Below the pieces are notes generated by a model, which worked only from the letters and a program-made list of their open reading frames with translations, searched no databases and was not told the origin of the DNA. 64,000 bases of DNA from Raillietiella orientalis (taxonomy: Eukaryota). Shown here piece by piece: positions 2,349 to 53,531 of this stretch. Position numbers and translations under genes: made by a program. Position 1 is the first letter of the stretch. Each line of letters begins with the position of its first letter. The stretch is taken from the NCBI GenBank assembly GCA_036172245.1, contig JAYWIR010000033.1:248001-312000 (forward strand), in the 5' to 3' direction.

Positions 2349-2389
2349 CCTCCTGGCGGTCGATAGGGAAGAAGCTATAAAAGGGGAAG

Positions 2390-4177: not shown

Positions 4178-4309
4178 CCTGGCAGCTGGTCTTGCTGCAC
4201 GGGATCACTGCAGGTCTTTTGCCGCGATCTCCTCGCCGCTTCTTTTTTTTAGTTTCGTTTGGAAAACTTCCCCTCTCAAGCACACACGAGCACAATTAAC
4301 TGATTACTT

Positions 4310-10844: not shown

Positions 10845-11060
10845 TCATTGAAACCCGGGTGCGCCGGGACGTTTATTCTAACGAATAAACTTATACAATC
10901 TGTGACTGGACCAGTAGTCCAGCCACGCCCTGGAAAGATATAGCCTGCCGGGCTACCGGTGCGCAGACCGGCGCGGTCGACCTCGGCAGCAGAGGGGAGG
11001 GGGAACGAAACAAAAAGAAAACAAAAAATAAACAAAAATCAGGGAGGGAGCGGGAAGGGA

Positions 11061-16309: not shown

Positions 16310-16405
16310 TTCTGCCTAATCCTCCACCCGCACCACGCACAAGCACCAACGGAAATGGAACTCAGGAGCAACGAAAAGACACGTCCGCTCGACGCTCCGG
16401 CATCT

Positions 16406-19283: not shown

Positions 19284-20938
19284 ATGCGCCTCGGGAATGG
19301 ACCTAACCGGTCTATGCATCGGCAACCGACACGTCGAAGAAGGTGGGAGAACCCAGTATTTCCCCACAGAAAACATCTTTTTAAAGACTTCAGCTTCCGG
19401 AATCTCGCCGACTGGGTCCTGTTGAAGGTTTCGGTCCACCTGAATGAGCTGGTCAACACGAACGGCTTCGTTGAAGCGCACGCCCTTCAGGGCTGTCTCG
19501 ACCGCCGGCTTCATGAAGAACGCGACCCACAGATTTTTGGCACGCCGCATTGCCACACTAACCGACTCACTGCGATCCTCTCGATCTACTGCGCGTTCTC
19601 TGTGGTAAACACGTAAATCTCCTGCAGGACCGCAAGTTCGAAGTCACGCAGGGTGGTGGCCGTGTCACGTCTGTTGCCGTCGTCACGCAGCCCGTTCACG
19701 TTCCAGCACACCACTCGAAATCGACGGCGACAGTCGAGCCCAGGTGTTAATCCTGGGAAAGTGGCAGTGCGGCGTTCGCCACCTGTTGCGGCGTGACGGA
19801 TGTAGGAATAGGATCATTGTTCACCGGTTTTCCCTCCTTCATGGGGGCCGATTCCTTGGCGCATTGCAACGGTGGAAGGGGTCAGATTTCACGCACCTGC
19901 TCCCCCAGTTCCTTGGGGGTCGATTCGTGGGCTGCCCTGGACGGCAAGGAGGAGCGGTTGTCAACTGTCGGCTCTTCGTCCTATACGGTCATCTCCTCAG
20001 CAGGTCCCACCGTTGCAAGGGGGCGGCAATCACTTACCTTCTCCTCCTCCTCCATGGGGGAGGCCAGCTGCTCGGTAGCCAAGGGTAGGAAACCCCTCCC
20101 TCCGTTCCCATGCTGCCGGCTTCCCCCTCGGCTGCCAGTGCGTCCCCCTCCTTCTTCGTCGGGATGCGCCTCTTCAGATTCTTCGACTTCCGTCCAGTCT
20201 TCTTCGGAGGCGCCTTTGCGGAGGAGGACGCACTTCCGGCATCCGGGTCATGGTCACCTGTCGGAGGTGATCTGGTCGCGGCCGGCCTTCGCAAAGCCTT
20301 TCTCGCGCCGTTCTCACGGTCCGCGAGTTCGGCCGCGAGCTCTTCCGCTGCCTGCTGGAAGGCGGCGTCCTCGATTGCGGCGAGCGCGTCGCTCGGCTCC
20401 CCCTCTGTTTGTACAGGGGGTTTGCCTTTCGTGGAGGCGACTTTGTCATCAACGAGGCGTGGGATATCTCTTTCGGTGGCGGTCTCGGGGAACTCCATAC
20501 GCTCCAAAGCGACCGAACATTCGCGGAGAAACGCGCGGCGTTGTCTCTTATTTAAAGGAGGTGTCGAGGGTTCTGCTTTCGGGCCTTCGGTATTCTTGCT
20601 CTTTTTACTTTTCGGCTTCGCCTTATGCAAGCACTCGCTCTCTCCAGCGTCGTCGGGAGTATCCTCGAACAGCGCTTGCTGCACGGGTTCGGGATATGGC
20701 TGTAAGTTCCGCATCTCGGGTGCCTCCTTAGGCTTTTTCGTTCACCCCGCGCGATTCGCTTTGGCTTCTTTCGAGGCAGGGGGAGCCGGGGTTTCGCGTT
20801 TAGGACACATATTTCGCAGGTGGCCCTCTTCTCCGCAGAGGAAACACTGGATGTGGGGGCATCATTTTTTAAGGTGCCCTGTGGCATCTATGTCCACAGT
20901 ACTTAGGCTTACCAACGTACTAGACGTCGACCACCTCG

Positions 20939-21080
20939 CCAAAGTCCTCATTCTTCATCCTGAAAACATCCAGAACTCAAAACAACCCAGCAGCCAAAGT
21001 ACCCACAAACAAAGTGCATCAGCCTTCGTTCCCTTACCATTCCCAAAGTCCTCATTCTTCATCCTGAGGACATCCAGAAC
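20939..21080. repeat. Insert in E ORF1 bounded by a direct repeat of about 38 bp (20939-20976 and 21043-21080)
   Basis: CCAAAGTCCTCATTCTTCATCCTGA(AA/GG)ACATCCAGAAC occurs twice. The insert is absent from the homologous position of F (about 36495). Confidence 0.85.
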
Positions 21081-21534
21081 GACGCCTAGTTTGTGGGGCA
21101 GCCCACCGTTTTCCTTGAAGGTCACACGCGATGCGGACATGCCCCGGAACAGTCTTCCGTAACTTTGGAAAAGGTTCGACTTGCTGCATACAGCGTGTAC
21201 CGTACCGTATTTGCTTAATTCCTTCTTCACGCCGGTTTTTGACATGCGGAGGGATACTCGCGTAAGAAGCGCTACCGCAGAGCGATCCTCGGTTACAGGG
21301 AAGACCTTTCTGCCTTCCAGCATGAAAGGGGTATTCAGCAGGCGTTGAGCCAGGCTTGCATCTCTGCAAGTGAGCTATACCAGCTGGCCCCCCCCAAAGC
21401 ACTGAAAGGCTTTCCAGGTTCTCCTTTTTTTCTTCTAGCCGCTGCAACTACCTCTCGAAGTTGCAGGCGGTATTTCCCACAAACAAATTTCCTACCTTGT
21501 ACATCAAGGAAAACTTGTATGCTTGTTCCAGGTA

Positions 21535-21745
21535 GGCGCGGTTGCCCCCTTTTTCAAGGTAGCGGTTGCGCTCTTTTCCGAAGGGGAGGTTGTCGTCTTT
21601 TTCAAATGAACGGTTGCGGCCTCTTGCACAAGGGCTACTGCTCCCTTTCTTAAGGGGGCGCTAGTTCTCGTTTCCGGAGGGGCGGTTGCCCCCTTTTTCA
21701 AGGGGGCGGTTGCCCTGTCCTCCGTGGTAGTGGTTGCCCCCACCT
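21535..21745 (-). repeat. 24-bp (8-aa, GATAPLKK-like) coding tandem repeat at ORF1 N-terminus (also about 35800-35950 and 53705-53860)
   Basis: RATAPLKK GATAPPET RTSAPLRK ... SATATLKK GATAP. Confidence 0.8.
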
Positions 21746-21918
21746 CTGTGGTTTGGGGAGAGGAACCATCCTCTCTTCCGCCAACTTCCATCGCGTGGTC
21801 CTCAGGGATTTTTGCCATGGGACACCAGCGATGCACCACTCAGTAACGCACTAAAAAAAGGTTTTAAAAACTCGCGCCGCTGGAGCGCAGGAAAAGAAGT
21901 TCGCACGCTTCCTCTACG

Positions 21919-23145
21919 TCGCCACCCTGTCACGGCGGGGCGTTTATTGTAAACTCTCTTTACAATTTGTGCTAGTAGGCCCCACTACGGCCAACTCAAC
22001 AGGACCTGCCGGGTTGCCAGCACGCAGACCGCCGCGTCTCTCCTCGAAAGCGGTAGGGGTTGGGAAAAACAAAAAGAAGTTGAAGGGCGGGGAAGGGATC
22101 ACGGTTCACTGAAAGGAGGGTCCATCTTTTCCAGGATGCCCTCGAGGTCCGTCCGAATGATTCCCAGTTGGGGCCATCTGGTTGCAAGCCTCAGGTAGCA
22201 GACTGCGAGTTCGACGGCAGCGCTCTCGTGGCTAGGTCTTCTGAAATCGCTCCAGGTCGTCACGATCCCTCGGATGCAGCAGAGTACTGCCAGAACGGCG
22301 GCTGGTCGCAGGGCATCCCGCAAGAAAACAAGCCGAAAATCGTCTCTGGACTGGCTGCCCTCCTGTAGCCGTAGGGAGGTACCAAGACGCTCCCACAGGG
22401 GTCGGAGGGCAGCACAATCAACATGGAGGCGGGGGAGGGTTTCCCGCTCCCCACACCTGATGCAGGAAGGATCTCCTCGATCCCTGGTCCAGTGGTGGCA
22501 CCGTGTGTTGCAGGGTGGACCCCAATGCAACAGCAGAAGCGCCGACTTTTCCCACTTCAGGGGGAGGATCATCGGGGATCCTCCCCGTGAAGAGGGAGGA
22601 GTCACATCAGGTCATCCATCGGGATGCCGAGCAGTTCGCCCCATCTCCTTAAACCACGCGGGAGGACACTTCGAGTAGTGGCATCGGCCAGCTGCGCCGT
22701 GATCCAGCCGCTTAACTTCTCTCTGCCTCCGATACGGCAGTAAAGTTCCCACCTAGGCATGCAGCTGCAGGAAAACGCCTTCCTGAGGAGGGGCATCGCC
22801 GAAGCTAGGGGCGTAGTCTCGGTCCACGTGCACCTGTCGGGACACTGCACGAAGGTCCGCAGGCTGCAGCGGGCGCGATTGTAGAAACGCAGGCTGTTGA
22901 AGCTTTTTTCACCTTGGGCATTTAACCACGCCCACTTTCCCACAGATTGCTTCAGTCATGCGGAGGAGTTCGCGGGGCTTTGTACAATCCAGCAGTTTTT
23001 TTTAGACAGAGTTGCCATGTGTCCCCGGAGAAGTTCGCATCTCTTGATCTTCGAGCCACGGCAGAGAAGATAATTCGCGAGACCCTCCGTCCCGGATACA
23101 CAGCTGGCAAGAAGTCGGAAAAAACACGTCCGCACGCTCCCTCTA
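21919..23145 (-). mobile_element. Internally deleted G-type element: about 28 bp of 5' end joined to distal ORF2 and 3' UTR
   Basis: 5' motif at 23117-23145 is followed directly by sequence homologous to 57680-56462. Zinc finger CIRCGE. Terminal hairpin at 21919-21948. Confidence 0.82.
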
Positions 23146-23487
23146 CGCCAGGGCACCCCCAGAGCGGGATGCCTCGCGGCTCCTCCTTTTGGACGAAGCC
23201 TTGGCAATAGGGGAAGACGAAAGGATAAGCGTCGACGAGCCTTTTACTACCGACGCAATTCTCCCCGATAATAAAAGGCTCAAGAGGCTTAATGCGCCAG
23301 GGGAGGACGGCCTGCCCGAGGAGTTTTTCCAATGCTTCGCGGCAGAGCTGGCCCCCCTGCTGCTTCAGTGACCAAGCTGATAAGCAACGAAAGCGACGTT
23401 TACGCCTCGTTTCGGTCAGTCCGAGTGAGTCTCCTCGCAAAGGGAGGAAATCTGAGATCAGTTAGCAATTGGCGTCCGGTCTGGATT
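23141..23487 (+). mobile_element. G-type RT N-terminal fragment
   Basis: SLYARAPP...APGEDGLPEEFF...SFRSVRVSLLAKGGNLRSVSNWRPV. Confidence 0.88.
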
Positions 23488-24180
23488 GGAATCTATTACC
23501 AAAATCTGTACGCATCATTGTTTTCTCGCTTCCCTAACAATTACCGCGTGTTCGCCTCTGATTATTAACAAAGCCAACCTAGTCATTTTTGGAAGAATTA
23601 TTCCAGGAATCAACTGACTGATCCCTTAAATGGACCACGAACGGGAGCAAGGACTGAGGTCGGCAAAGTTAAGAGTACAATTACGAGAATCCGATGCTCA
23701 TAGAAATGCATAGTGCATTGCTTCTGAATCATCACGTGAGTTAGCTCATCAATTCGGCGTTTTCAATATTCTTGTTTCTTCCAAATTTATGGCATTTCAG
23801 GTGAATTGCTCGTCCGTACAGTCAATGCAATTCTACGATACGAACAGCCTCTCGTTTGATCCACAATTCTTCTCGGAGTGTGTCACTGTCTCTGCTCGAT
23901 TGCTGCAGACATGCTCGGCAAAGGCAATTCCCTGAAGGCAGCTGTTCGACACATGCATAATCACATGGAAATTCATAACACATTTCCGAATCCTTCCCAA
24001 ATCAATGAAGTCATGGAAGTGGATCTTCTGAAAGCAACTGTCTGCATCCACCTGACCTTTCTTTGACTAACGTATCTGCTACCAAGATGTTCAAAAAACT
24101 TCAGAAGAAAATTTGAAAAAATTTCAAAAGTAGCTATTCACGAATCAACCTAACCTCATATGTAGAAATGACCGTTTCAA

Positions 24181-24400
24181 ACAAAAATAATAGGAACATT
24201 CAAATTTTCAATAATCCCATTTGTTATCTCGGAAATGTTTTTGATTCGTTGCTTTCTTGAGATCATTCCTCCATGCTAGATTAAGAGTCAATCCACAATT
24301 CAAATTTTTCTGACCCCCTCTGACCTCCCCTTACCATCTGCCATAGAAGTACCACTATTTGATACCAATCTTCTATTCAGATCAGGCTTCTCAGTGACAC
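24181..24400 (+). pseudogene. cox3: Separate, diverged mitochondrial cox3 fragment (NUMT)
   Basis: Aligns to 27241-27460, e.g. TTATCTCGGAAAT, AATCCACAATT, ATAGAAGTACCACTATT. Confidence 0.85.
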
Positions 24401-24869
24401 TGCAAGTGTATCAAATGTCTTTTGCCATTTCTCACTATGCTTGTATGTATCTGTGATAGTGCGTGCACAAGCTCTTACTTGAAGCCCTCAACTGATTGAA
24501 AATATATTGACTCAGATATAAAATGAATTTGTGAAGAAAAAGCATTTATTAGAAAAATTGCTCCTTGTTTCAGAAATTTATAAGAAGAACTCCACCTTCT
24601 TGATTGATGTATAGTGTTGACATTACTAGGTTTCCGTTTTTTCCCTTTCGGGAATATGTTAACAAGGAAGGGTCAGCTTTCTTTCTTATTTATATCTTTG
24701 CGAGTGTAATGGTAAAGCAACGTTTCTGTCCGGTTCGCCTCTTTCCATATACTAGTCGGATGGCAAAATTGCTCAGAGATAAGCATGAAAATCCTGATAA
24801 ATATCGAAAGTGCTCACTTCAGTCCATGGAATGTTGCTCCTTCAGTATATCAGTGTATGAATACCGGTG

Positions 24870-24915
24870 AAAAACCCATCCACAATTCATTCATTCCTAT
24901 AACTACCATCCATAT
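24870..24915 (+). pseudogene. cox1: Probable extreme 3' end of cox1
   Basis: Reads PSTIHSFL*LPSM, similar to cox1 C-terminal PPxxHSxxELP, immediately before trnL2. Confidence 0.45.
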
Positions 24916-24970
24916 TCTGATATGGCAGAATTAATGCAATGGACTTAAAATCCATCAATCCTACTTAGGA
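24916..24970 (+). tRNA. trnL2: Mitochondrial tRNA-Leu(TAA), T-armless (NUMT copy)
   Basis: TCTGATA TG GCAGAATTAATGC A ATGGA-CTTAAAA-TCCAT. Anticodon at 24946-24948. Confidence 0.88.
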
Positions 24971-25430
24971 GTAAAACCAAATTCCAAAAATTGTACTCCA
25001 CCATCAAAAGACTCTCAAACTCGCTACCTTCCTTAACACCCCTAATACACACATTTCCATCCCTATCCATCCTTTTTGTAATAAACACCAACTACCTAAC
25101 TTATCCAGTTATTAAATCGACCATTAACCAATGACTAAAATCATGAAAACATACAATCTACAAAACTTTCAAACTGAAATCCAAGTCCAAGTCCACCATA
25201 CCCATTAAAGAACCCTATGACTATTTACAATTACCATCACCCCATACAACCATGCTCAACTGGAAATGACCCCACTTTCCAATCCATCAGTAAATAAAAT
25301 TAACTCAATCGATTGACCCACCAATATCTCCTTCCATGCGACAAATTACATAATAACCCATACTACAATACATAACATACAAAAACACCCTCAAACACCA
25401 TTAAAATGCTCCAATAATACAGTATGGGAA
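24971..25430 (+). pseudogene. cox2: Highly degenerate first copy of cox2
   Basis: Patchy colinear similarity to 25535-26175: TTCCAAAAATTGTACTCC vs TTTCAAAACTCGTACTCC; ATTAAATCG..CAATGA (IKSxxxQW); AATGCTCC. Confidence 0.55.
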
Positions 25431-25480
25431 ACTAGCGCAAACGGCACATCACTAATACACAATTCGTTCCAAATAAACAT

Positions 25481-25535
25481 ATTAAAATAGCAAATACAAT
25501 GCACTGGATTTCAAATACATCAACAACATTTAGCG
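25481..25535 (+). tRNA. Degenerate mitochondrial tRNA-Leu-like sequence (anticodon reads TCA)
   Basis: ATTAAAA TA GCAAATACAATGC A CTGGA-TTTCAAA-TACAT has the same layout as 24916-24970. Confidence 0.55.
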
Positions 25536-26175
25536 TTAGCACCTCTCATATTTCAAAACTCGTACTCCCCCCTCACAGAACATTTCATCCTACTACACCA
25601 TTACATCATAATCACTCGAATCATCAACTGTTTAATAATCCTATATAATACCTTCATCTACCTCTATAACTCCTACACAAACTTCATACTGCTCAAAAAC
25701 CACCTTATAGAACTTGTCTGCACCTCCCTGCCCTCACTCATCCTCCAACTGATCATACTTCCCTCCTTACACATCCTCTACCTCCTAGATACTAGCTACT
25801 TACCCTCCATAGCTATTAAATCAATTGCTATCCAACGATTCTGAACATACGGATATTCAACTTTCAAGAAAACCAAATTCGATTCCTTCATAGTACCAGA
25901 CAGGATTCTTAGACAACGACAAACTTCTACCTTATAACACCATAATTCACATAATCATCACATGATCAGACGTTCTTCACTCGTGACCCATCCCATCCTG
26001 AGGAATTAAAATCGACGCCATCCCCGGACGACTTAATCAACAAGCCATCTTCCTAGATAAACCTGGCGTATCATTTGGACAATGCTCCGAAATTTGCGGC
26101 ATCAATCACAGATTTATACCAATCCAACTCAACTCAGTGAGACTAAAAGATTTCATTCATACAATAACAGAAAAT
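25536..26175 (+). pseudogene. cox2: Cytochrome c oxidase subunit II (NUMT)
   Basis: [43 protein letters not shown] (AGA=Ser, ATA=Met). Indels present. Confidence 0.95.
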
Positions 26176-26238
26176 TAGAATTTTAGATAAAAAAAAAACA
26201 ATAACCTGGCAGCTTATAATTGGTAAAACAAATTTTAG
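26176..26238 (+). tRNA. trnD: Mitochondrial tRNA-Asp, mutated (anticodon loop CTGGCAG for CTGTCAG)
   Basis: Acceptor TAGAATT/AATTTTA, anticodon stem ATAAC/CTTAT, located just before atp8. Confidence 0.65.
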
Positions 26239-26250
26239 AACTTTATTTCA

Positions 26251-26397
26251 ACACCACACTTAACACCAATATACTGACTCCCTCTATGCATCTTCTTCAC
26301 AACCCTAACCGCAAGCATAACTCTATTTATCCCCCTCCACATCGCACCATCACCATCACACAAAAACCATAAAATAAATACCAAAGGATCATGATAC
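26251..26397 (+). pseudogene. atp8: ATP synthase subunit 8 (NUMT)
   Basis: (T)PHLTPMYWLPL resembles MPQLxPxxW. The frame ends on ATGATAC, a mutated ATGATAA atp8/atp6 overlap. Confidence 0.8.
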
Positions 26398-27035
26398 ATT
26401 CTATCTTCACCCCTTTACACCCCTGCACCATAACCCCACCATATTTCATCACTACCTCAATCACTATCATCCTAATCCTTTCTTACCCCATATGAATAAT
26501 ACCAACAATTTCGAGACTCTCCATCGCTGGTCCAATAACGCTACTGGCAAAAACCATCAACAATAACCCACACTACCAAACCACTACATCAATTAAAATA
26601 TTCATTACCTTCTTAATCACCATTACTCTCATAAAACTATAAAGACTTACCCCTTATACAAGTTCCTCATTCGCCAACTTATTGCTATCAACATTCCTTG
26701 CCATCCCACTATGAACCGCCAGACAACTATTTTCCATTTTCAACAATCACTCGAACTTCCTAACCCATCTTATCCACAAAGGAACTCCCCTTTCACTCTC
26801 CCCATTCATTCCATTATCAGAAACCATAAGACTGATAATACAACCCATATCCTTATCGCTACGACTAACAGCCAACATTACCCCCGGACACATCCTTATT
26901 ACTATACTATCCAACAAACTCACAAACCTCGTCCCATCCAGACCTATTATAATAGTAGAAATTACTAGAGCTTTCATGCAAGCTTACATCTTTATTACAC
27001 TAACATCACTATACACAAACAAATATCTACAATAA
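26391..27035 (+). pseudogene. atp6: ATP synthase subunit 6 (NUMT)
   Basis: ETMSLMMQPMSLSLRLTANITPGHIL and EITSAFMQAYIFITLTSLY. Frameshifts upstream. Confidence 0.92.
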
Positions 27036-27804
27036 CAAATCACCAACCCTTCTTCATCCACCAATACAGCCCCTTACCCTTTCTCATCTCCCTATCACTC
27101 CCATCAATAACCCTCTCCCTCACATGGCTTATGCACAAAATATACTCACCCATTACCCTATGCATTACAACCACAATCTTAAACCGATTCCTCTGCGGAA
27201 AAGACATGAAGCGAGAATCCTCATTCATGGGTATTCTCCCAAGAAAAATAATAAAAACACTGAAATTTGCCATAATCATATTTATTATCTCAGAAATTTT
27301 TTCATTCATATCATTCTTTTGGTCATTCTTCCATTCTGGATTAATATACAATCCACAATTTTGATTTTCCTGACCTCCAACTAATCTTACACTACCCTCC
27401 GTTATAGAAGTACCACTATTCAATCCTATTCTTTTATTAAGATCCTGCATTTCAATAACATCAACACATCACTCCCTCCTAAATAAAAATTACTCCATCT
27501 CACTTTTCTCTCTACTTATTACTATTGCAATCGGATCAGCATTCCTCAGAACTCAAGCCATAGAATATTTCACACAAGTTCTCTATTGCAGATTCCATTA
27601 TTGGCTCTGCATTTTTTATTGCACCAGGATTCCACGGCTTACACGTATTTGCTGGCCTCATTTTCCTCGCCTTATCTATAAGCCAAATCTTTTCGCTTTC
27701 CATTACTCACCTCCATCACCTATCATTTGAATTCCCCATTTGGTATTGACATTTCGTAGATATCGTGTGACTCTTCCTATTTTTATTTATATACTTATGA
27801 ACAT
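27032..27804 (+). pseudogene. cox3: Cytochrome c oxidase subunit III (NUMT)
   Basis: FIISEIFSFMSFFWSFFH, WPP, GFHGLHV, YWHFVDIVWLFL. Frameshift near 27575; SPWP mutated to SPLP. Confidence 0.96.
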
Positions 27805-27859
27805 ATTCTTTTAGTATATACAGTAGAACAAACTTCCAATTGTTAAGAAATAAAGAGTA
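27805..27859 (+). tRNA. trnG: Mitochondrial tRNA-Gly(TCC), T-armless, 55 nt
   Basis: Acceptor ATTCTTT/AAAGAGT; anticodon arm AACAA-ACTTCCAA-TTGTT; 7-nt TV-replacement loop. Confidence 0.88.
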
Positions 27860-28105
27860 CTTCTTCTAGTGTATCGCACTAATCTCTAATATCCTTATTC
27901 TTACTACCCTACCAATACACAAAATCCCAACCTTACCATCTTCTCACTATTACTTCAGATAAAAAATTCTCTTATCATTTGTGCTATCCTCATTCTTCAT
28001 CCTGACATGAGTAGGAATCCAAGCCATTACTTTATCCACTTGTCACCTCTTAGACAAATAGAATCACCCATCTACTTCCTATTCTTCATCATGTTCCCTC
28101 TCTAA
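27860..28105 (+). pseudogene. cob: Cytochrome b C-terminal fragment (NUMT)
   Basis: IALISNILILTTLP, FFILTWVGIQ and QMESPIYFLFF match the cob C-terminal helices. Confidence 0.8.
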
Positions 28106-28108
28106 TCC

Positions 28109-28167
28109 GGCATTATTAGTTTCATTAAAACATTGATTTTGTAAATTAAATAAATAAATTAATGGCA
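28109..28167 (+). tRNA. trnT: Mitochondrial tRNA-Thr(TGT), T-armless
   Basis: Acceptor GGCATTA/TAATGGC; anticodon arm TTGAT-TTTGTAA-ATTAA. Confidence 0.82.
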
Positions 28168-29659
28168 ATAATATACCGTCAAGAACTAATCCTTCGTACC
28201 CAAAATTTATTCTTTTTAAATAATTCTAACCACCTCACCATACCATCCTCCCATTCCCACCATCACATTTCTAGCAGCTCCCATAATCAACCGCAATGAC
28301 CGCATTGCAGCATCGCAATGACCATCCGGGAGAACACAAATGCGATACTGGAAAAGATTGGCAGAGGAAAGCATCGCACCTCCGTTCAAAAACATTGACC
28401 AGCTGACTGTGATTCAGCCACGGTGTAGTCGCGGAAGTCAGGCGCTACCAACATGCCCTGGAGATTCAGCACTGACAACGACGGCAAGCGATGCACCTCG
28501 CTGCGTATCTACTCAGAAGGGAATTGGGTATGCACTTCTCCGCTTTCACCGCATCTGGAAGTGACCCTCGGGCTCCTGAGAAGAAAATTTCCGTCATGTT
28601 CGCAGGCTAGGATGGGATTCATCCCTACCCTCACCCGTCCACCGCATCCTAAATAAGTTCTGCCTCGTGCTCTGAACCAGAACACTTCCCTACACGTCTC
28701 GCGCAACGCAGTCCACGCTACACTGCCAAACAGTGTCCGCGCAAACGTGTTCTTTCTTGCACGACCTTTGTTTTCCCGGCAAGGTCAACTAGCAGAAATC
28801 TCAGGGGGAAGTGTTTCGGTACATGCGCAGTGCAGTCACCTCGCCTGCATGTGGCAGTGCTCACACCTCCTTGGACCCAAGTCGCAGATCCGAAAAGCGG
28901 AATACTACTGCCACTCCTGAAACAGCATCGCGGAAGGGATGAAGAAAGGAAGGCACGTGCCCAGATCCCAATTTGCTCGCAAGAATTGCCTCTGCGGCAC
29001 GCAGATTGCGAAAATAATCAATCGCCTTTTTCCTGTGCAGCTTCATCCCCGAAGCGCACTTTCCGACTTCCTCTTCAGAGACCGTCCTTGCGGATGCAAT
29101 CCGCTCCCTTCCTCATGCCATTCGTCAGGTGTGCCCTACAGCTCTTGCGCTGGTCTTTTCCTGCACTCCGTCAGTTCCAGCTCACTATTCCCGAAGTCAC
29201 ACTCCTCGCGGCCAACACGCCGACCTTCCCACTTGCAACCTTGACTTCCCATCCCACGGCGAGCAGCTCAATCTTTTAGCAATATCGCTGCACTTACAAC
29301 TGCTTCCCAGAGCTATTCACAACCGCTCCAAAGGATGCCACTTTTTCTTCAAAAGTCTCCTCCTCGGACCACCCTACCCATCGCCTGACAATCAGCAAAT
29401 CGAACGTCTCCTAAACACAACAACGAACTTCGACGTCGATCTCTCAGCAGCCTTCGATCACGGATGTCTCTTCACCCATCATGTGGCCTCCACTCTCCAC
29501 CCGATCTCGTTTCCATGGTTTCCTTTGGTAAGGAAATTTTGCTTTCCAATTGCAAGGCAGCTAGCAGTTTCTTGTTGCAAAAGAGAGATGATGACTTCCA
29601 AGGACCGCGTCTCAGCTGCAACAAGCGACCACTGCAAGATGTTAAGACCGTCCTACTAG

Positions 29660-30367
29660 GAGATTGCTTGGAGCGCATCGTCTCCGGGGTTGGAGGGGGC
29701 ATGCGCGCATTTGATACTGGATCTAGGGGAGATCACTTGGATCGACGAGGACGATGGCTATGTGCAGAACGATCCGTGCACCGGCGTGTCTGGAGAGGCC
29801 TGCGTCACGTTATTCTCGGCCGGGCCGTCTTCCTGCACGTTGGCCATGAAAATGCCTTCGGTAACGCAAGAGGTCCATAAGATCGAAACCGATCCGCGTG
29901 AGTCTGCACCCGAGTCCGCGACCCTGCATTCCACTTCTGGGCAAGGTGAAAAGGTATATTTTCTTAATCCCGTCTGCCCTCACTGTGGAGAAACGTGGCA
30001 GGACCGGGAAAAAATTAAAATGCCGGGCGCCTTTGTCGTTCATGACGGACCCATCTGTCTCCTGGTGAGAGAACGTGTTCACACATCTGAGCACAAGTAC
30101 GTGCAGGCAGGAGCATCGCACGCCAGAGGCTCGCCGTCCTTGGCGAAGGACGTGCGCGCCGCACACGGCAGTGCTGGCCAGCAACCAAGCTGCTCCGGAA
30201 CGGGGGCCGTGAGCAGCTTATATTCGAGTGCCAGAGCGGATGCCAGCGCGGAACGCTCGCACCCTGTTGACTGCTCCCCGGTTTACCAGAACGTCATGTC
30301 TATGATCGGAAAATTTTTCCGTAGATTGCTCGTTTGCGTTGCTCCACGGCGTCGCCGTAAAAGATGA
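29660..30367 (+). CDS. Unassigned ORF of about 230 codons, possible terminal exon of a lineage-specific gene
   Basis: Longest ORF in the non-TE block. One CPHC motif, a basic tail, and AATAAA right after the stop. No recognisable domain. Confidence 0.25.
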   Translation, partial: EIAWSASSPGLEGACAHLILDLGEITWIDEDDGYVQNDPCTGVSGEACVTLFSAGPSSCTLAMKMPSVTQEVHKIETDPRESAPESATLHSTSGQGEKVYFLNPVCPHCGETWQDREKIKMPGAFVVHDGPICLLVRERVHTSEHKYVQAGASHARGSPSLAKDVRAAHGSAGQQPSCSGTGAVSSLYSSARADASAERSHPVDCSPVYQNVMSMIGKFFRRLLVCVAPRRRRKR

Positions 30368-31899
30368 ATTAATAAATTCCTGTTTCAAATGGTTCAGTTT
30401 GAATCTCCTGTTGGTGGGGTACACGGGTTCGGATTGGTTTGCTTGGGCCCGTGCGCAAGTCCCTGCACGTGCGGCATTCCTCTAGCCGGCTGGCGCCACC
30501 TGCTTCCAGCGTGCTGCCGACGCCTGTGGCAATTCGACACACGCAACCTCTGCATCGAAAGGAGCGCGGCGTCCGCTGACGTAAACGAAGGGGATGGCAT
30601 GAGCCATCCGGAGGAGGAGCGGACTCTTACAGCACACAGTTTGGAAAGCGAACCACTACTGCGACGAGTGGATGCGTTTTCCTGCAGTTTTCGGGTGGTT
30701 TCTTCCTCGTTCGTCATTAACGTGGCGACGTTCAGCATCTCTAGTATTTGCCAGCCGATACCAAGTGCTGCTCTCTAGCGCTGCCGTGGTGCAGGGCATT
30801 TTGCATCGCTTACGGTTGCAAACTGACGATTGTACCTCCGCCGAAGCGGCGTGCGCTTGTGCGGTGAGCGGCGAACTTGCTTACACCTGTACGGAAACTG
30901 AAGCTTCAGTATTTGAGCACGTGATTTGGAGGGTTTGCAGGAGACGATGCATTTTGACACGCAACTGTTGGCTGCCACACCTGTGGCCTACCTCCTTCCG
31001 CAGGAAGGAGTTCCGATTCACTGGCTGTCAGGCGAATAGTGCCAGTAGAACTCTTCGTGTCCCAGCTCGCACTACAGGGTGCCTCAATTCTTTCGACAGC
31101 CTGGGTCGCCGGCCGGGTTGCTGCGCGCTACGGGCGCAACAGCAACACTGGCAAAAGGCAACACTCGGGTGAAATCCATTCTAAGAGATGGTGATGCGTG
31201 CAGTCTTCGATCTTCCTCCGCATAATGTCGCTGGTGGATTCGGTACAGTGGCCAGTAGAGTTTCGAATCGAACAGCGAATAGAACTGGAAGGATCGGGAG
31301 TCCACCCTCGGTGCACGTTCGACGGGAAAACAGAATCGATAACGACGGTTCGCCTCGAACGTCTTTTCTGGTTGTGCAAGCGTGTAGCTCCCCCATTCTT
31401 CTGTTGAACTCATCGTGTCTCCAACCATGGAGCTGCCGGATGGATGTTCAACACTGCAGAATGCAAAGAAGAGTTTTGCTTTTTTCTGGGACCACCATTT
31501 CCTTAATATTTTGTAGCCACTCTTCAGATACTCTTCAGAAAAGCACGGAACGACTGGCAGCGAGAGGTTGTGGTAGGAAAAGTGCGGCAGTCGCTACAGC
31601 ATCTCCATACTCGCTCCTTTGTTTTTTAACCACGTGCGCACGGTTTTCTTCAACAAAGCACTACTGTTTGCCGGCTAGTGGAAAATTTAGTTGCTGGTCG
31701 TGATAAGCTATGGCCAACTTCCGTGGTTCCAGAGCGCAGTAAAGCATTTTGCGTGTATTCCGCCAGGAACGAAGACTGTCGCCTTAGACCAAAGCAACGG
31801 GTATTGTGCGGACTGGCACCGGTTTGTGCTCTAGAGATTCGTCACTGAGGTCGGCGCCTTCTACGAAAGCTACCGTTCCAGGCGCTACAGCGTCAGCAG

Positions 31900-32620
31900 G
31901 ACGAAATTTTCCTCTCGACACGGAGCGCAATAGTCCTTCAGGCTGATGAGTCCATTAAATGCATTCTAAGGCATTCCTAAGCCCGCCTTTCATTTCCACT
32001 TTCTGGGGTGCGAACAACAAGCGGAAGGCGGAAGAGGTGCGCGTATACTTCATCCACACCTCTGCTACTTTAGGCAACATGAATGTGCCATGTTGGAATG
32101 CGCCGATCGCCGACGCTGTCTTCTGGGAGCAACCTGTCTTCGCTTCCTCCTGGGAATAGTCCCTCGGCAGTGCACCGAGCTACTTTAAGTACTGAATAGC
32201 ATGCATTAAAAAGTGAATCCATTTCAGATGTCGACGCTGAACGGAATGCTACCGCGGAAGGGTTCGCTTGGTGCGTCCTGTCCACCTCCAGTCCAGAGCC
32301 GTAGCTTGATAGCTCGAAGAAATCTTCGCAACCTGACTACGGTGTTCAGATGGACAGTACCAAAAGAGAATTGTCGGCGGACGCTGACACGGCCGGTGCG
32401 CTTAAGCATTGCACTTCAGGCGAGTCAGACCTTCCCGTACGGAGTCAGCAACAAATCGTGGAAGGTGCTGAAGAGCAGGCGGTTCAGGGTGGCGGCCAGC
32501 CGTATGCCGTCGCGCACCTCCACTGTGTACTCCTTTGGTCCTCTGAACAAATTGTTGGTTATCACGCCGCCACGGCAGGTGTGCAGTAAGTGGTTTCAGA
32601 TTTCGCGAAGCGCTCCCGTA
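31900..32620 (-). mobile_element. Heavily decayed RT/thumb fragment of the same lineage
   Basis: EDFFELSSYGSGLEVDR and CSQKTASAIGAFQHGTFMLP match EDFFDLLSRGTGLTVNR and CLQKAQAAIGLFQDGRFYLQ. Confidence 0.7.
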
Positions 32621-32629
32621 CCGCAAGAT

Positions 32630-32927
32630 GCATAAGAAACTGCTGGTCGATGCCGTCGAAAAAAAGCGAACGCGAGTTTGCTAGCGAAGGTGTGTGCCGA
32701 GCTCCTGGGATGAAATGCAAACGCCTTCATCAGCACGGAACAGACTATGCTATTTCCGCGCGGGGTATGGAGGCGAACCTGTTCCAAGCTTCCATCTGGC
32801 TAGACCTCCTACAAGAAATAAACTTGATGCGCAACCAGGATTCCAGTGCGTGCGCCGGCAAATGCTCAGATGTCCGGGTCAAGTATGGCGCCCTTGCAAG
32901 AGCCGTCGACTTATGGAAAGCATTCGA
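32630..32927 (+). mobile_element. D-like RT fragment
   Basis: YAISARGMEANLFQASIWLDL...AVDLWKAF. Confidence 0.8.
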
Positions 32928-35630
32928 ATTTCAACAGGATTTCGCCGGTGCGTTTATAGCTAAATTAACGTTTACAAAGAAGTTCAGTGGCAGGGTTAAT
33001 GCTCCAGGCACGCGCGAAAAAACACAGAGCCTTCCGGTTCACCGGTTCGCCGACCGGAACGGTCCACCAAGGGAGAAGTGGAAGGAGGATAAAACAAAAA
33101 ACTAAACAGAAGAATCAAAGAGTGGGAGGGAACGGAAAGGGATCACTTTTGCTGCTGGGGCTGCATCGTTCCTCTCAGGAAGCTGGCAAGCTCTGGTTGC
33201 ATTTAAGATATAGGTTTGGCCATCGCGACACTTTCCTCAGGAATTGGTAGGCGCACTGGATGGCATCCTGATCGCTTGGTACTCCCGCCGCCGTGCTCAA
33301 GGCGGCGACGTTCCCACGAAGGCAGCTCAAGGCTACTATCGAGGACGCTGGCCGAGGGGCGTCAGCAACGAAGAAGGCTTTTAGAGAGTCATCTTGGTTG
33401 CCGCATAAGATAATCACGGCCGCGGCAAAGCGGAAACAGAGGAACCCAAGAGCAACACGATCCACTAAGAGGTAAGGGAGGGAGTCCCGTTCCCGCACCT
33501 CACACATTTGGGGTCCATTGCTTCCCAGTTCCAGTGTTGTCGGCGGGGTTGCTGGGGAGTCTCCAATGCTGCAACAGGAGCGCCGATTCCTGCCATTTTA
33601 AAAGGAGGTTAAAAGTGTGCATAAGAAACAAGGGCCACTTCAGATTTTCATTCGGGACATGGAGCAGCGCTTCCCAGCGCAGAAGTACATAGAGAGGTGT
33701 ACTCTCGGTCGCAGCATTCGTTAACTTTCCCGCCTTCCACTCTCTCTGTGGCATCTCCTTCCCGGAGATTTTTAGTGTAACCTCCCACTTTGAAGAAACA
33801 TCGCTGTCCAAATCTTCAAGTAGAAAGTCCAGTGCAGCAGCGAGAGGGGCTCTACCTTCCCACGGTCTCCACTTAAAATCCTAAAAGATCTCACGGAGCG
33901 TGCAACTCCTGTAACCCCCAAACAGGAACCGTCGTTCCTGTTGAGAGCGTTGCATGCCGAACTGTTACCACGTTCGAACGGTATCTCGCAATCAGGCACT
34001 ACCGTACGCCTGGAGACAGGTGAACCATCTCTATACTTGTTAGCGCAGCTACCCTCCGTAGCTAAAGTCCGCATCCGTAATCGCGGCGACAAAGTGCAAG
34101 AAAGGACGTGAGTTCCGTCTTCCTGGTGGCTTGCTGAAGTTGGAGACGTGCAGGGATGCACCAGCAGGTGCACCACAACTCCGGAACAAGTGCCAACATT
34201 CGGAATTAGAGCAGAAGCTTTAGGCGCTATAATGTCAAGAGGCCGAGAGCACCGTGCCGACGCGGAGCACACAAGTCCTTTATGCCGACTCGGGCCCACT
34301 TGTTGCCCCAAAGGGCGATACGGAGGAGGTCCTTCGTTCGCTTTTTGATCCTCTTTGTGGGGGGGCAAACAAGAAGCAGGTTCCGGAGGAAAGGGGCCGC
34401 GAACGGGTTCCAAACCGCGGTCCGTTCAGGCAGAAGAAATCTGCCGCCTCGGAGAGTTCCGATCGCCGTCTCTACATTCTGGAGGCAGCCGAACCACGCT
34501 TCCGCAGGGGAGTAGTACCTTAACGGCACACCAAGTTACTTGAAGTAACTCACGGTGGAAATCCCCAAACGGACCCAGTCCTGGCACCCTGCCTACGCCG
34601 AACCAACTGGAATCACGGACGACTTCGCCTAGTTCACCGTAAGTCCGGTTCCCCGATCCAGCAGGTCGAGGATCTCCATGAATACAAAGCCCGTTTGGAC
34701 ATAGGGAACAGCAGCAGAAGGTCGTCCTCGCAAGCTGAAACCGCGATCGAAGCGTCGCAGTCGAACGGCAGGTGCGCCAGAGTTTCCCTGTACGCTCTCA
34801 GTTCCAACTCAATGTAGGTACTGAAGAGCAACCTCCTCTGGCTCTCTCCCTTTTGTTTGCCACGTTGCAGTGGCACGCCGCGCACGGTCTGCCCGCTGCA
34901 AGTAAGACTCATTAGCGCGTAGCTCCAACTGGGGCTCTGATAGACTAATAATGAGGCCGGAAAGCTTAAGCGTTCCAAAAGCTCCAGCAGGAGATTCTCG
35001 TCGACGCTTTCGAATGCTTTACGCAAGTCGAAAGTGACCGTAAGAGCTCCCTTCATCACCCAACCATGCGTCTAATGGCTGACGAACTTTGCCGAATTTC
35101 CGTTGCGCATCAAATCCCTTACCTGTTGGAGCTCCATCGAGGTGGAAGCGTGGAACAGGTTCGCCTCCCTACTTCGCACGGGAACAGCATACGTCTGTTC
35201 CGCGCTAATGAAGGCGTTTGCAACCCCTCCCAAGCCCTCAACCCAAACCTTAGCTATCAACTTTGCATCCGCATTCACAATTGTGATAGGACGCCAGTTG
35301 TTCATGCTCCTCAGATCTTTTCCCTTACGGAGAAGTTGCATTTCGGCCGAACGGAACGAGGCGGGAACGTCATCTGTCTTGCGTATGAGCAAGGAGAGTT
35401 GATGTACGAAGGGGTTAGCTCAACCGCGAAAGTTTGATTAAACTCCCCGGACAGGCCGTCCTCCCTTAGAGCATTGTGTTTCTAGAGCTTTCCGATGACC
35501 GTGATGATCTCGTCCATCATAAAAAACTCGTCGAGGGAGTTTTTCTCCTCCTCTCCGATCGCATGAGCGCCTTTTGGAAGCAAAAGGCGTGAGAAATTGC
35601 ACTCGGAAGGCGCCCTGGCGTACAGGGAGG
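32928..35630 (-). mobile_element. Element H: D-like ORF2 3' portion (RT-zinc finger) and 3' UTR, decayed
   Basis: NWRPITIVNADAK, DLRKAFESV, CEDD in place of YADD. Degenerate terminal motif at 32928-32958. Confidence 0.9.
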
Positions 35631-37430
35631 CGTGCGGACGTGTTTTTGCTGCGCTCCTGCAGCAGAAGTTTACGAAGCTTTTTTTTGTATGTTTGTGAGT
35701 GGTGCATCGCTGGTGTCCCATGGCAGTAACGCCTGAGGGCCCTGCGATGGAGATTGCAGGGGCAAAGGCTTGTTCCTCTCCGCAACCCACGCACATGGGG
35801 GAAAACACCCCCACGGAGGAGAGGGCAACGGTCGCCTGGAAAAAGGAGGCAACTTTGTTCTGGAAAACGGTGCAACCGCCGCCTAAGAAAAGAAGGCAAA
35901 CGCCCTCCTGGAAAAGGGTGAAACCTCCTTTTTGGAAAAGGGGACAACTGCGTCCGCGGTTCCGTGTTCTCCAAACACGAAAACGTAAAGCTCCGTGGCT
36001 TTAGCGCCATTTCCGGCAGACTTCGCAGAACAGCACGCCTACCTGGAAGAAAGATACATGCCATCCTTGATCTACAAGGTAGAAAATCTGTTCGTTGGAA
36101 ATGACACTTGCAATTCCGAGAAGGAACTGCAACGGCTACAAGTTAAAGAAAAGGACCTGGAAGGTCTGTCAGTTCTCAGTGGGGGCCTGCGGGTGGAGCT
36201 TAATTGCAGAGATGCAAGCATGTCTCAACGCCTGCTGAATACTCCCCTCATGTTGAAAGGCGGGAAGTTCTTCCCAGTAACCGAGGATCGCTCTGTATTA
36301 GGGCATCTCACATGGGTAACCCTTCGCATGTCAAAAACTGGCGTGAAGGAGAAATTGAGTCAATTCAGAACTGTAAAAGCGGTATGGCCCAAGTCAAACG
36401 TCTCCAAAGGCTACGGAAGATTGTTCAGTAGTACGGCTCCAGCGCGTGTGGCCTTTCACGAGAACGGTGGGCAACCCCACTAACTCGACGTCGTCAACAA
36501 GATCGTCGACTTCTGGTACGTTGGTTAACCCAAGTACTGTGGACACTGCGATGCCACAGGGCACCTCAATAAACGATGCCCCCACATCCATTGTTTTCAC
36601 TGCGGCGAAAAAAAACACCTGTTGAAGATGTTTCTGGAACGCGAAACCCCGGTTCCCCCTGCTTTGAAAAAAGCCAAGGGGAAACTCGCGGGGCAAATGG
36701 AAAAGCCTAAGAAGGCACAAAAGGGGCGGAACCCACTGCCAGAGCTTGAACCCGTGCAGCAAATGCCGGTCGAGGATAATCAGGACGAGGCTGGAGAGAG
36801 CGAAGTCTGGCATAAGGCGAAGCGGAAAAGTAAAAAAATCAAGAAAACCGAAGGTACGACAGCGGAACACGCGATATCTCCTTTAAATAGGAGGCAACGC
36901 CGCGCATTGCTCCGCGAATGTTCGGTTTCCTTGGAGCGCGTGGAGGTCCCCGAGACCGAAACCGGGGGAGATATCCGCCGCCTCGTTGACGACGAAGTCG
37001 CGACCACGGAAGGCAAACCCTCTGTGCAAACAGAGGAAGAACTGCGCGACGCGCTCGGCGCAATCGAAGAGGCCGGCTTCCAGCAGGCAGCGGAACAGCT
37101 CGCGGCCGAACTCGCGAACCGTGAGAACGGCGCGAGAAAGGCCTTGCGAAGGCCAGCCGCGACAAGAGCACCTCCGACTGGTCACCACGACCCGGATTCC
37201 GAAAGTGCGTCCTCCTCGGCAAAGGCGCCTCCAAAGACGACTGGGCGGAAGTTCAAGAATTCGAAGAGGCGCATCGCGACGAGAAAGGAGGGGGACGCAC
37301 TGGCAGCCGAGGGGGAAGCCGACACCTTGGGAACGGAGGAAGGAATTTTCCCACCATCCGCTACCGAGCAGCTGGCCAACCCTATGGAGGAGGGGGAGCA
37401 GGTAAGTGATTGCTTCCCCCTTCCATCGGT
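35630..37430 (+). mobile_element. Element F: 5' end and ORF1 (E-type)
   Basis: 5' GCGTGCGGACGTGTTTTT; YMPSLIYKV, FPVTEDRS, CGHCDATGHLNKRC. Confidence 0.9.
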
Positions 37431-37431
37431 G

Positions 37432-39140
37432 GGCCGACGTGTGTTTCCTTTGTTCCCGAGTGAGTCGACAGGAAGCGGTTTCTTTCGTGTTGTTTTTGTG
37501 TGGAACGTCGTTGGTGTCGGAAAGCAACCTTTCCTGAGAACTCCACGATGGAGGTAGTTGTGGAAGAGGCTTGTCCATCTTCACAGCCTACTGGATCAGG
37601 GGCATCCGCCCCAAAGTCATCCCCGGCAACTCCGAGTACGTGAAGCGCCATGGTGGATGCGTTTAGCGCAACAACCATGGCGGAGATGGCCGACTACCGG
37701 GCAGCTGGGTACAAGCCCAGCTTAGTATACCGGGCAGGCATTCTTTTTGAGAGGCGAACTGCACGCGCATTTACGAAGGCGCTCCAGAACACCAACGTAC
37801 TAGAAAAGGATCTTAATGGTCTATCTATGCTTAGCGGGGGTAAGCGCGTCTAGTTTGTCTGTAAGGACATCACCTTCGCGCAAAATCTGATCACCACCCC
37901 GCTAAAAATGAATGAGCGCATGATCCTGCCAGTGACCATGGACCGCTCTGGAGTGGTCCATCTGACCGGTATCACAATCCGCATGACAAGGTCTGCGGTT
38001 GGTAAGGAACTGCAGAAGTTTGGTGAGGTAGACGCGAAGTGACCAAATGCCACTATCTTCGAGGGCTACCATAGCCTTTTCGTAGGGCAGCCCGCCGCGC
38101 TGATAACTGTGAACGAGGGTGGAGCGCCACCTTACAAGTTGGAGGTCTGCCAGGAAGCGGTAGACATCTGGTACGTAAGGAAACGCCGCTACTGTGGGTA
38201 CTGTAACATAGTAGGGAACATCCGCAAAAGGTGCCTAAATATACAGTGTCACCTGCGCGGGAAGCGGGGCCACGTTCGGCGAGTGTGTTCCAAGCGCCCT
38301 ACCGCGGTGCAACCTACCGTCAAACAGGCGCAAGTGAAAAAGACGAAGAAGATTGCAAGACCTATATTTGAAAGTGGCCCGCAGAAAGTGCCAGCACCTC
38401 AACCTTGGAAGCAAAAATCGGAGGAACAATCTTCTTAAGTGGTGGGAGAGGCAGACGCTTGCAAGGATGTAAAAGCCCGTAAGGAAAAAAGGTTCTCAAC
38501 CAGGAAGCCGCGAGAGCGGAGAAAAAGCCGGCCGGTAAGGAGACAAAACCTGGGTTGCGCTCAAAAACTTAGCATGAGTGCACGATGGCACTCGAATGCA
38601 TTGGTGTTCCCGAGGTTGCCACCCGGGGCGACAAGCCTCTTCTCGCCGTTGCCGCCGCGTTTGAAGCTTACGACGGGGAATTCTCTGTGCAAACAGAGCG
38701 TGAGCCGAGGGAGGCGCTAGCCGAAAGCGAGGACGTTGCATTTGCGCAGGTGGCGGAGCCCGCGACCACACTGGTTGAACGTGAGAACCTCTCTCTCTAG
38801 GCCTTGCGAAGGCTGGATCCGGCAAAGAAGGCCTTCACAGGTGAGTTAGACCTGAGGTCAAGAAGCATATCCTCCTCCTCGGAGTCTCCCCCCAGAAAGT
38901 CGGGACGCAAGTCCGAAGAAGCCCAGGAAGTGCCTCCCCTCCACCAGCGATGAGGAGAAGCAAGAAGGTAGCGGAAGAGTGGGAATCCCGGAGAGAAAAG
39001 TCCCACGCTCGGAAGCCGTCGAGACGTCCACCTCCATGGAGGAGGGTGAGTTGGCGGGTTATGTCCTCCCTGCAGTCGCCAAGTATGGAAAGCCCGCCCT
39101 TATGGAGGAGGGCCAACAGGTGCCCAACGTCTGCTACGTA
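37432..39140 (+). mobile_element. Element I: 5' end and ORF1, decayed
   Basis: GYKPSLVYR, CGYCNIVGNIRKRC, CHLRGKRGHVRRVC. Homologous to 59355-61190. Confidence 0.85.
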
Positions 39141-39945: not shown

Positions 39946-39946
39946 T

Positions 39947-53460: not shown

Positions 53461-53531
53461 GTCATCTTTTGGCTAATTATGGATTCTGCCACCTGCTTCA
53501 GACGCGAATCCCATAGCCTTGCTGGCAACTT

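Follow-up and report, generated by a model that had tools for sequence, protein, structure and literature searches.

Two head-to-head joints at the same ORF2 codons in a LINE nest of Raillietiella orientalis: possible inversion joints of 5'-inverted insertions

Introduction

Twin priming, the route to 5'-inverted L1 insertions, was reportedly set out by Ostertag and Kazazian in 2001, and microhomology-mediated joining of the 5' ends of long interspersed nuclear elements (LINEs) is said to have been described by Zingler et al. in 2005. The sequence-specific LINEs of the Tx1 group include Tx1L, which sits in Tx1D of Xenopus. All of these bear on one 64-kb window of Raillietiella orientalis (assembly GCA_036172245.1, contig JAYWIR010000033.1, positions 248,001 to 312,000), the whole stretch of DNA that was analysed, in which the 5' ends of two copies of one LINE family are joined head-to-head to antisense copies of the second open reading frame (ORF2) at the codons for S-L-Y-A. 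The reading favoured here, with the balance for and against it roughly even, is that the joints mark the points of inversion in 5'-inverted LINE insertions that arose by twin priming or a near relative of it, and are not nested hits on a target.

In the account of PMC2912911 (Kojima 2010), ~30% of human- and chimpanzee-specific L1 insertions are 5'-inverted, their hallmark is that the second target strand primes internally on the RNA, and microhomology at the inversion joint is credited to the annealing of two complementary DNAs (cDNAs); R2 template jumping of elements without long terminal repeats (non-LTR elements) is summarised in the same source. Background on microhomology-mediated LINE 5' end joining is given by Yamaguchi, Kajikawa and Okada 2014 (PMC4245944), and on tandem and double insertions of non-LTR elements by McGurk and Barbash 2018 (PMC5932611).

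The LINE family and its reference copy

Copies of one LINE family, from several subfamilies that are 56-94% alike, make up almost the whole window (positions are those of the window), and the G+C content is 54-61% throughout, apart from a block at 36%. Element coordinates (ref) are read on the full-length copy C, where the 5' end is ref 93, ORF2 spans ref ~1754-5437 and the 3' end is ref 5653; its ORF1 is open and its ORF2 is broken by just two in-frame stops.

10848 to 16408, minus strand (5' end at 16408, 3' end at 10848): C, the full-length reference copy, a 5.56-kb element

The 5' ends of the family have the core GCGGACGTGTTTTT in common. Its 3' ends are without poly(A) and carry a conserved AATAAACG-CCCGGCG...CCGGGT motif, of which the CCCGGCG...CCGGGT part is hairpin-like, followed by 5-8 nt that close in A or AC, and this tail motif has seven matches in the window against 0.48 expected.

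8913-8943, 10848-10877, 21918-21948, 32930-32958, 39935-39979, 56463-56492 and 61387-61416: 3' ends of the family, with the tail motif

Two joints at the S-L-Y-A codons

Read from 23125 to 23158 on the plus strand, and likewise from 35642 to 35609 on the minus strand, the window carries CACGTCCGCACGC(C) followed by TCC CT(C/G) TAC GCC AGG GC, which are the S-L-Y-A-R-A codons of an ORF2; both strings are present as the preliminary description quoted them. The codons sit in an FYSxLYARAP stretch between the endonuclease and reverse transcriptase (RT) domains, at ref nt ~2931 of C. The features that meet at these two places, including the 5' untranslated regions (5' UTRs) of the elements, are as follows.

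35617 to 35647, minus strand: the joint J2, AAAAACACGTCCGCACGCC and then TCC CTG TAC GCC
35626 to 37433, plus strand: Z2, an E-type 5' end (GGAGGCGTGCGGACGTGTTTTT...) with 5' UTR and ORF1, which stops at ref ~1750
32930 to 35625, minus strand: Y2, a 5'-truncated ORF2 from ref ~2931 to the 3' end, tail motif at 32943-32958
19442 to 21912, minus strand: E, an E-type 5' end with 5' UTR, ORF1 and the start of ORF2, ref 93-2156
23138 to 23487, plus strand: G, a 5'-truncated ORF2 arm from the S-L-Y-A codons, ref ~2935-3286
21918 to 23118, minus strand: F, a later 5'-truncated insert with the ORF2 C-terminus, its CCHC motif and the 3' UTR, ref ~4420-5653
21890 to 21917: J3, the left copy of a 28-nt target-site duplication, with the first 23 nt of E's 5' end and TCTAC of the ORF2 arm
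23119 to 23146: J1, the right copy of that duplication, with an orphan 23-nt E-type 5' end and the start of the ORF2 arm

At J2, a genuine E-type 5' UTR and ORF1 follow the joint (35626-37433, plus strand). Y2 begins there at the L-Y-A codons (35617-35625), the TCC before them (35626-35628) being assignable to either partner, and the far end of Z2 at ref ~1750 coincides with the start of another copy's 5' end, x37436. The statement that an E-type 5' end lies on an antisense ORF2 in both places thus stands in full for J2; at J1 it is limited to 23 nt of such an end (23119-23140/23141). A scan with the joint pattern at up to 3 mismatches returned J2 only, J1 being missed because it is one base shorter. 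G is cut off at 23487 by an insert of mitochondrial DNA (a NUMT), the low-G+C block at ~23480-28400, which has 36% G+C, a strong negative GC skew and decayed COX2, ATP6 and COX3 frames in the usual metazoan order, which mark the source as an animal.

The sequence to the left of J1 (21918-23118) is that of F, without a 5' UTR or ORF1. F is 1.2 kb long with its tail motif at 21933-21948, and it is collinear with a relative at 56463-57684 that runs on upstream into ORF2; the homology between the two starts at 23118 and ends at 21918. Exactly flanking F are direct repeats (21890-21917 and 23119-23146) identical at 22 of 28 positions, the arrangement expected of ordinary LINE insertion with a duplicated target site. 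When J1, J2 and J3 are aligned together, J1 tracks J2 over ORF2 and on into the E-type end for its first 23 nt, J3 tracks J2 from GTAGAGG on through the 5' UTR, and J1 and J3 overlap in those 28 nt alone, where they agree against J2 in two states (G and not C in the Leu codon, and one G fewer). From this comparison, F probably landed in a pre-existing joint between E and G and duplicated 28 nt of it. The alternative, in which the RNA of E had leader bases and was joined to the tail of F by a template jump, leaves the orphan 23-nt end at J1 without explanation. The preliminary description had counted a third 5' end at 21902-21920; it does carry the same bases and does abut a 3' end, but it is not independent, being the target-site duplication copy of J1. 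The number of independent joints is two (J1/J3 and J2), not three.

The partners at these two joints belong to different clades, for which three further copies serve as comparison.

16404 to ~19330, plus strand: D, an ORF2 copy joined head-to-head to the 5' end of C at ref 2654
56463 to 59355, minus strand: Y4, ref 2747 to the tail, head-to-head with the 5' end of Z4
59357 to 61386, plus strand: Z4, ref 93-2040, the partner of Y4

The ORF2 arms G and Y2 are 63% identical over the 340 nt past the joint. Y2 is 79% identical to C and falls in its clade, and G falls in the clade of D and Y4, with 75% identity to D and 73% to Y4 (also given as 73-76%); this difference in clade already shows within ~20 nt of the joint. 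The earlier view that the two ORF2 partners are of different subfamilies, and that the pair is not a simple duplication, is borne out by these values (63% to each other, 75-79% to other copies), and since the partners are of different clades, the joint formed twice and was not one duplicated locus. On the other side, E and Z2 are 78% identical overall, 72% in the 300 nt beside the joint and up to 87% further in. The endonuclease part of E is closest to Z4 (77%) and G is near Y4, the partner of Z4, which is compatible with one RNA as the source of both arms; the membership of Z2's partner in another clade points the other way. The E-type arms have no sequence that overlaps with their partners.

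Twin priming in the family

Two other places in the window have opposite-facing arms, each pair with ends at closely matching points of ORF2.

53532 to 56462, plus strand: X, an inverted arm with an E-like 5' end, ORF1 and ORF2 to ref ~3311 (D-A-K-L codons)
53455 to 53531, minus strand: the direct-arm remnant of X, an antisense ORF2 piece that starts at the A-K-L codons where X ends
32663 to 32927, plus strand: a second inverted arm, ref ~3293-3555, whose direct arm starts at 32660 on the minus strand, ref ~3551

X and its antisense piece overlap by 9-13 nt, and the copy closest to both is D (78% for the piece, 87% for the last 165 nt of X). At 32660/32663, the arms overlap by 5 nt (TTCGA), with the inverted arm limited by a at ~3293 and b at ~3555 and the direct arm starting at c, ~3551. 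Both have textbook twin-priming geometry, and twin priming is demonstrable in the family. As a side observation, three break points (32663, 53531 and 56462) lie in the N-A-D-A-K-L codons of ORF2 at ref ~3293-3311, as the inner end of one inverted arm and as the outer end of another and the start of its partner.

The same arrangement, in which the 5'-most base of an inverted 5' arm meets a 5'-truncated direct arm with a 3' end, is found at J2 (Z2 and Y2) and at J1/J3 (E and G), where the 3' part of G was lost to the mitochondrial insert. As in 5'-inverted L1, insertions in the window have opposite arms, the 5' arm being inverted and the direct arm being 5'-truncated with a 3' end, they show a small overlap at the break (X and 32660/32663), and there may be short microhomology at the joint. 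In contrast to 5'-inverted L1, many inverted arms here extend to the RNA's true 5' end, 780-1180 nt between the arms are absent from the E-type pairs, the arms can be of different subfamilies (certainly so for C and D), the inverted arms look chimeric (B with C; Z2 with x37436 and a third ORF1) and poly(A) is absent. The ORF2 pieces had been described as hosts of the insertions, and their architecture fits better with direct arms of 5'-inverted insertions of the twin-priming type.

Under twin priming, one strand of the cut target would prime cDNA at the 3' end of the RNA and give the direct arm (Y2, G), and the other target strand would prime internally, its cDNA running to the very 5' end of the RNA and giving the inverted arm (Z2, E). 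The two cDNA ends would then anneal at a few complementary bases and be sealed, and the product would be an element head set against a 5'-truncated ORF2 facing the opposite way. In this family the arms may come from different RNAs, and the inverted arms may themselves be chimeras made by template jumps. J1/J3 would be one such joint, into which F was inserted later with its 28-nt target-site duplication. That J2 lies on the same Leu codon could reflect a joining process limited to a short segment where the RT domain begins, in which the E-type terminus (GGAG...) would meet a short match (CTCC), the remainder being luck. The geometry, the target-site duplication around F, the two clean twin-priming cases, the lack of a target motif and the difference in clade are shown; that the E-type pairs arose by the same route, and why one base was used twice, are inferred.

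Several observations weigh against this account. The E-type inverted arms end before the direct arms begin (2156 against 2935, and ~1750 against 2931), so that the closeness of arm ends b and c found in X and at 32660/32663 is absent from the E-type pairs, and the gap of 780-1180 nt means that nucleotides are missing or that each arm had its own RNA source. Identity between E and Z2 is 72-87%, but their ORF2 partners, at 63%, belong to different clades, and with this mismatch twin priming from one RNA would need recombinant lineages. The joint of C and D is not twin priming from one RNA, C being complete and 65% identical to D; the two arms are of one subfamily in X but not here. Around a whole inverted insertion no target-site duplication was found in the window; the outer flanks of Y2 with Z2 and of Y4 with Z4, which are other LINE copies, gave no matching repeats, and the outer ends of E and G are lost. 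Joint microhomology is short and not unique, which leaves the repeated use of one base mechanistically unexplained; that repetition may need a cause outside the evidence seen, all of which comes from a single window. The misfits would mean either that arms of different RNAs were joined or that the lineages are mosaic. The head-to-tail joint of C and B and the series of Z2, x37436 and a third ORF1 (39114-39903) suggest that template jumps were frequent. The idea that one cDNA snapped back on itself was also considered and rejected, as the partner arms differ in subfamily (C against D, 65%).

A census of element ends

The 5' ends were listed by core motif, flanks and presence of ORF1, which gave nine whose flanks could be assigned or examined (C, B, E, Z2, x37436, h42404, X, Z4 and Y'). 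One of these, h42404, has yet to be introduced, together with its partner.

39935 to 42392, minus strand: an ORF2 copy starting at ref ~3175 at 42392, tail motif at 39964-39979
42404 to 43243, plus strand: the 5' end h42404, with ORF1 at 42617-43243, head-to-head with the preceding ORF2 copy

Head-to-head joining predominates, with an antisense 5'-truncated ORF2 abutted by six of the nine, at the following places.

ref 2654: C
ref 2747: Z4
ref ~2931: Z2
ref ~2935: E
ref ~3175: h42404
ref ~3305: X

Two more abut a LINE in sense (B on the tail of C, x37436 on Z2 at ref ~1750), and one (Y') abuts a short head-like fragment and then an unassigned stretch. Of the nine head-bearing copies, just two extend to a 3' end, C and Y', which is internally deleted; seven stop at ref ~1750-3311, and their missing 3' parts are absent from the window. 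Inverted arms are 3'-truncated by construction, so seven 3'-truncated head-bearing copies fit twin priming.

Three candidate features were set aside. At 28741 there is a motif that resembles a head, but its supposed antisense ORF2 flank scores 39 where shuffled sequence reaches up to 48, and the motif is not followed by an ORF1. The stretch at 63593-64000 after Y' is without the endonuclease-like reading frame that a continuation of Z4 would have. A derivation of the head core from an antisense ORF2 relic (CACGTCCGC against CACCTCCGC at ref ~2615, with a tblastn extension at 16380) is at chance level by a rough estimate. Y' itself (61387-63584, minus strand) has an internal deletion that joins its 5' end and ~280 nt of 5' UTR to ORF2 at ref ~3713, and a second short head-like fragment (GCGTGTTTTT) lies just upstream of its 5' end.

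Microhomology at the joints

Intact copies read TA(C/T) TCC NNN CTN TAC GCC and the joints read ...GC(C) TCC CT(C/G) TAC GCC, so that the partners at J1 and J2 can share 1-5 nt (CTCC/GGAG at the most), according to whether TCC is taken as part of ORF2 or as the complement of GGA in the E-type end. The likeness to microhomology-mediated joining of LINE 5' ends is thus in the few shared bases, CTCCA where C meets D, CGCC at X and no more than CTCC at J1 and J2; the difference is that microhomology in the window, being so short and so frequent, could not by itself single out one base. In the 900-nt zone, five intact copies have 3-8 occurrences of CTCC where 3.6 are expected, and the E-type terminus is matched better at other places, for example over 7 nt at ref 2959 of copy C. 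Microhomology can therefore bias the choice of site but cannot fix it. The earlier proposal that complementarity of the element's 5' terminus drives the joining survives only in a weak form (1-5 nt shared), and long microhomology as the sole cause is rejected on the commonness of CTCC and the better matches elsewhere.

Alternative explanations

A stronger form of complementarity would follow if the E-type RNA started a few bases further upstream, inside an antisense S-L-Y-A remnant of an ancestral inversion. A cDNA end with 9-17 nt of sense ORF2 would then anneal to any ORF2 copy or cDNA and remake the joint. At J3, GTAGAGG stands right before the E-type end even with a 3' end, rather than an ORF2, as neighbour, and B and C have D-type ends that open with TGAAG/TGGAG, which are the ORF2 bases CTTCA/CTCCA at the joint of C read in antisense, even though B abuts a tail. 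The motif CTNTACGCCAGGGC is conserved across clades, so that one leader could pair with any host, and J1 and J2 are nearly identical over ~45 nt across the joint where their flanks are 63-72% identical. Against this, the target-site duplication accounts fully for the extra bases of J3 and for the orphan 23-nt end of J1, the E-like end of X has no such leader and abuts the A-K-L codons, and the local peak of identity is what a selected ORF2 motif and 22 nt of conserved terminus would give. An inherited leader is on this evidence unlikely.

In a scrambled graveyard of LINEs, two unrelated joints produced by nested insertion, deletion and recombination could also have met by accident on the same codon. 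When six antisense joints were placed at random in the observed 650-nt zone, 7% of trials had some pair no more than 1 nt apart and 19% had one no more than 4 nt apart, values that leave room for accident; with positions free over the whole element, the corresponding figures were 0.8% and 2.3%, which makes the zone itself unexpectedly narrow. The region does contain breaks of a kind other than target-primed reverse transcription, for example where the 3' UTR of D is cut ~100 nt before the tail and ~110 nt of filler follow. The coinciding pair is, however, exactly the two E-type ends, one specified pair among 15. The coincidence of the joints is suggestive, not compelling, and accident as its whole explanation seems to us rather improbable. 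More solid as an oddity, and still unexplained, is that joints cluster where the RT region begins.

In the preliminary description, one of two ideas was that these elements target a conserved site in sibling ORF2s. The family, or its E-type members, would insert antisense into the start of the RT-coding part of a sibling, with S-L-Y-A as a hot spot and the ORF2 pieces as true hosts. Six of the nine heads do abut antisense ORF2 within ref 2654-3305, and each of the five tails found within another copy runs antisense to that copy (ref 1332, 2013, 2040, 3311 and 3555). If the repeats around F are a duplication, its first nick lies inside the L-Y-A codons (TAC/GCC), which would make three events within 8 nt. 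Like the Tx1-group LINEs, the family has an L1-like make-up and copies that lie inside other transposons. Unlike them, its 3' joints have no common target in the window: the seven recognisable 3' ends abut seven unrelated sequences, and with tail flanks unrelated there is no sequence-specific nick site. The six antisense 5' joints lie at five distinct places in ORF2 that share no motif. No E-type 3' end occurs at or near the S-L-Y-A site or anywhere in the window, E and Z2 stopping at ref ~1750-2156, and the window does not contain the upstream halves of the supposed hosts. No insert in the window, and no full-length copy in particular, has both ends at one host site as a Tx1-like element would; C, the sole complete head-bearing copy, has its tail on another copy's head and not on the ORF2 that its head abuts. 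A window that is nearly all LINE makes landing in a LINE the expected outcome, and inversion yields the antisense bias by construction. With unrelated tail flanks, scattered heads and no E-type 3' end at the site, self-targeting is not upheld and we consider it quite unlikely.

A single ancestral joint copied as DNA in a segmental duplication, with its ORF2 side overwritten later by gene conversion, is very improbable, since the 72% identity of the E arms in the 300 nt by the joint is near the 63% of the ORF2 arms but the clade assignments (Y2/C 79%, G with D and Y4 73-75%, G/Y2 63%) hold to within ~20 nt of the joint and the outer limits of the arms differ.

Implications

If the joints did arise by twin priming, a non-mammalian, poly(A)-less L1-like family would join the elements that insert with 5' inversions, and in this family the inverted arms can reach the first base of the RNA and can be chimeric. 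The tempting but unsupported claim that the transposon targets itself would thereby be removed. For annotation, it follows that in such nests an ORF2 piece beside an element's 5' end need not be its host, and that a short orphan 5' end can be a target-site duplication. The site itself would be of interest only given a genome-wide excess of E-type ends at this codon.

Arrays and tandem joints

Like tandem insertions of non-LTR elements, the window has head-to-tail joints without intervening bases, such as that of the tail of C on the head of B at 10847/10848, and tails set exactly on the outer end of complete inverted arms (56462/56463 and 32927/32930). Unlike those insertions, the tandem order here is combined with 5' inversion of most members. 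Copy B (8944-10847), whose 5' end is the one directly joined to the 3' end of C, is 94% identical to C. The placement of 3' ends exactly on the outer end of the next copy's complete inverted arm at 56462/56463 and 32927/32930 has counterparts at 8943/8944 and 61386/61387, and copies form same-orientation runs in three places: A, then B with C and D, then E with G; Y', then Z4 with Y4, then X; and the 39935-42392 copy, then Z2 with Y2, then the insertion at 32660.

In these runs, the 3' boundary of an element could be re-used as an insertion or priming site. Taken further, the family may build same-orientation runs in which a new copy starts at the 3' boundary of the previous one with its 5' part inverted, and within such runs the terminus of the E-type RNA may pair with the FYSxLYA codons and remake the joint at the same base. 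This is a speculative extension with a low likelihood in our estimate; if true, it would mean a sequence-programmed inversion point, whichever ORF2 lineage gives the direct arm, and self-seeding LINE arrays.

Family relationships and other features

The window's open reading frames have Pfam matches to Exo_endo_phos, RVT_1, zf-RVT and zf-CCHC. The family's ORF1 carries a CCHC knuckle, and its ORF2 an apurinic/apyrimidinic (AP)-endonuclease-like domain, an RT and a C-terminal zinc-binding zf-RVT; these matches, together with the open reading frame layout of copy C, give a LINE architecture of the L1/Tx1 type. A search with ORF2 found one close relative, P0001, which is 68% identical, lies on a metagenome contig and has FYSALYARSP intact. 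The remaining matches were 22-33% identical, the nearest named proteins being L1-like polyproteins of fish and plants. The reading frame that spans J2 had no protein matches at E<=0.001 among proteins of 94-301 aa, and the conserved 22-nt anchor of the 5' UTR had no exact matches in the metagenome contig scan; a protein-guided scan of the contigs gave only two distant loci (31% and 52%, over short stretches), which were not used.

Between the 3' UTR of D, short by ~100 nt before the expected tail, and the end of ORF2 in E, ~110 nt at 19330-19442 are unassigned, and target-primed insertion alone does not explain this break. The joint of the A tail with copy B (8925-8965) is a near palindrome. 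ORF2 carries tail-like CCGGGTGA / CTCGGGTG motifs at ref 2005-2037, and two tails, those of A and Y', are joined no more than 27 nt apart in this stretch of two different copies.

A more distant LINE family, which has an ORF1, endonuclease and RT of its own, is represented by two copies at 1-4243 and 45159-49367 (both minus strand) that are 85-94% alike. Each is followed by ~700-870 nt without detectable similarity between the copies and then by an A-type element on the plus strand, the two A-type elements being 70-78% alike.

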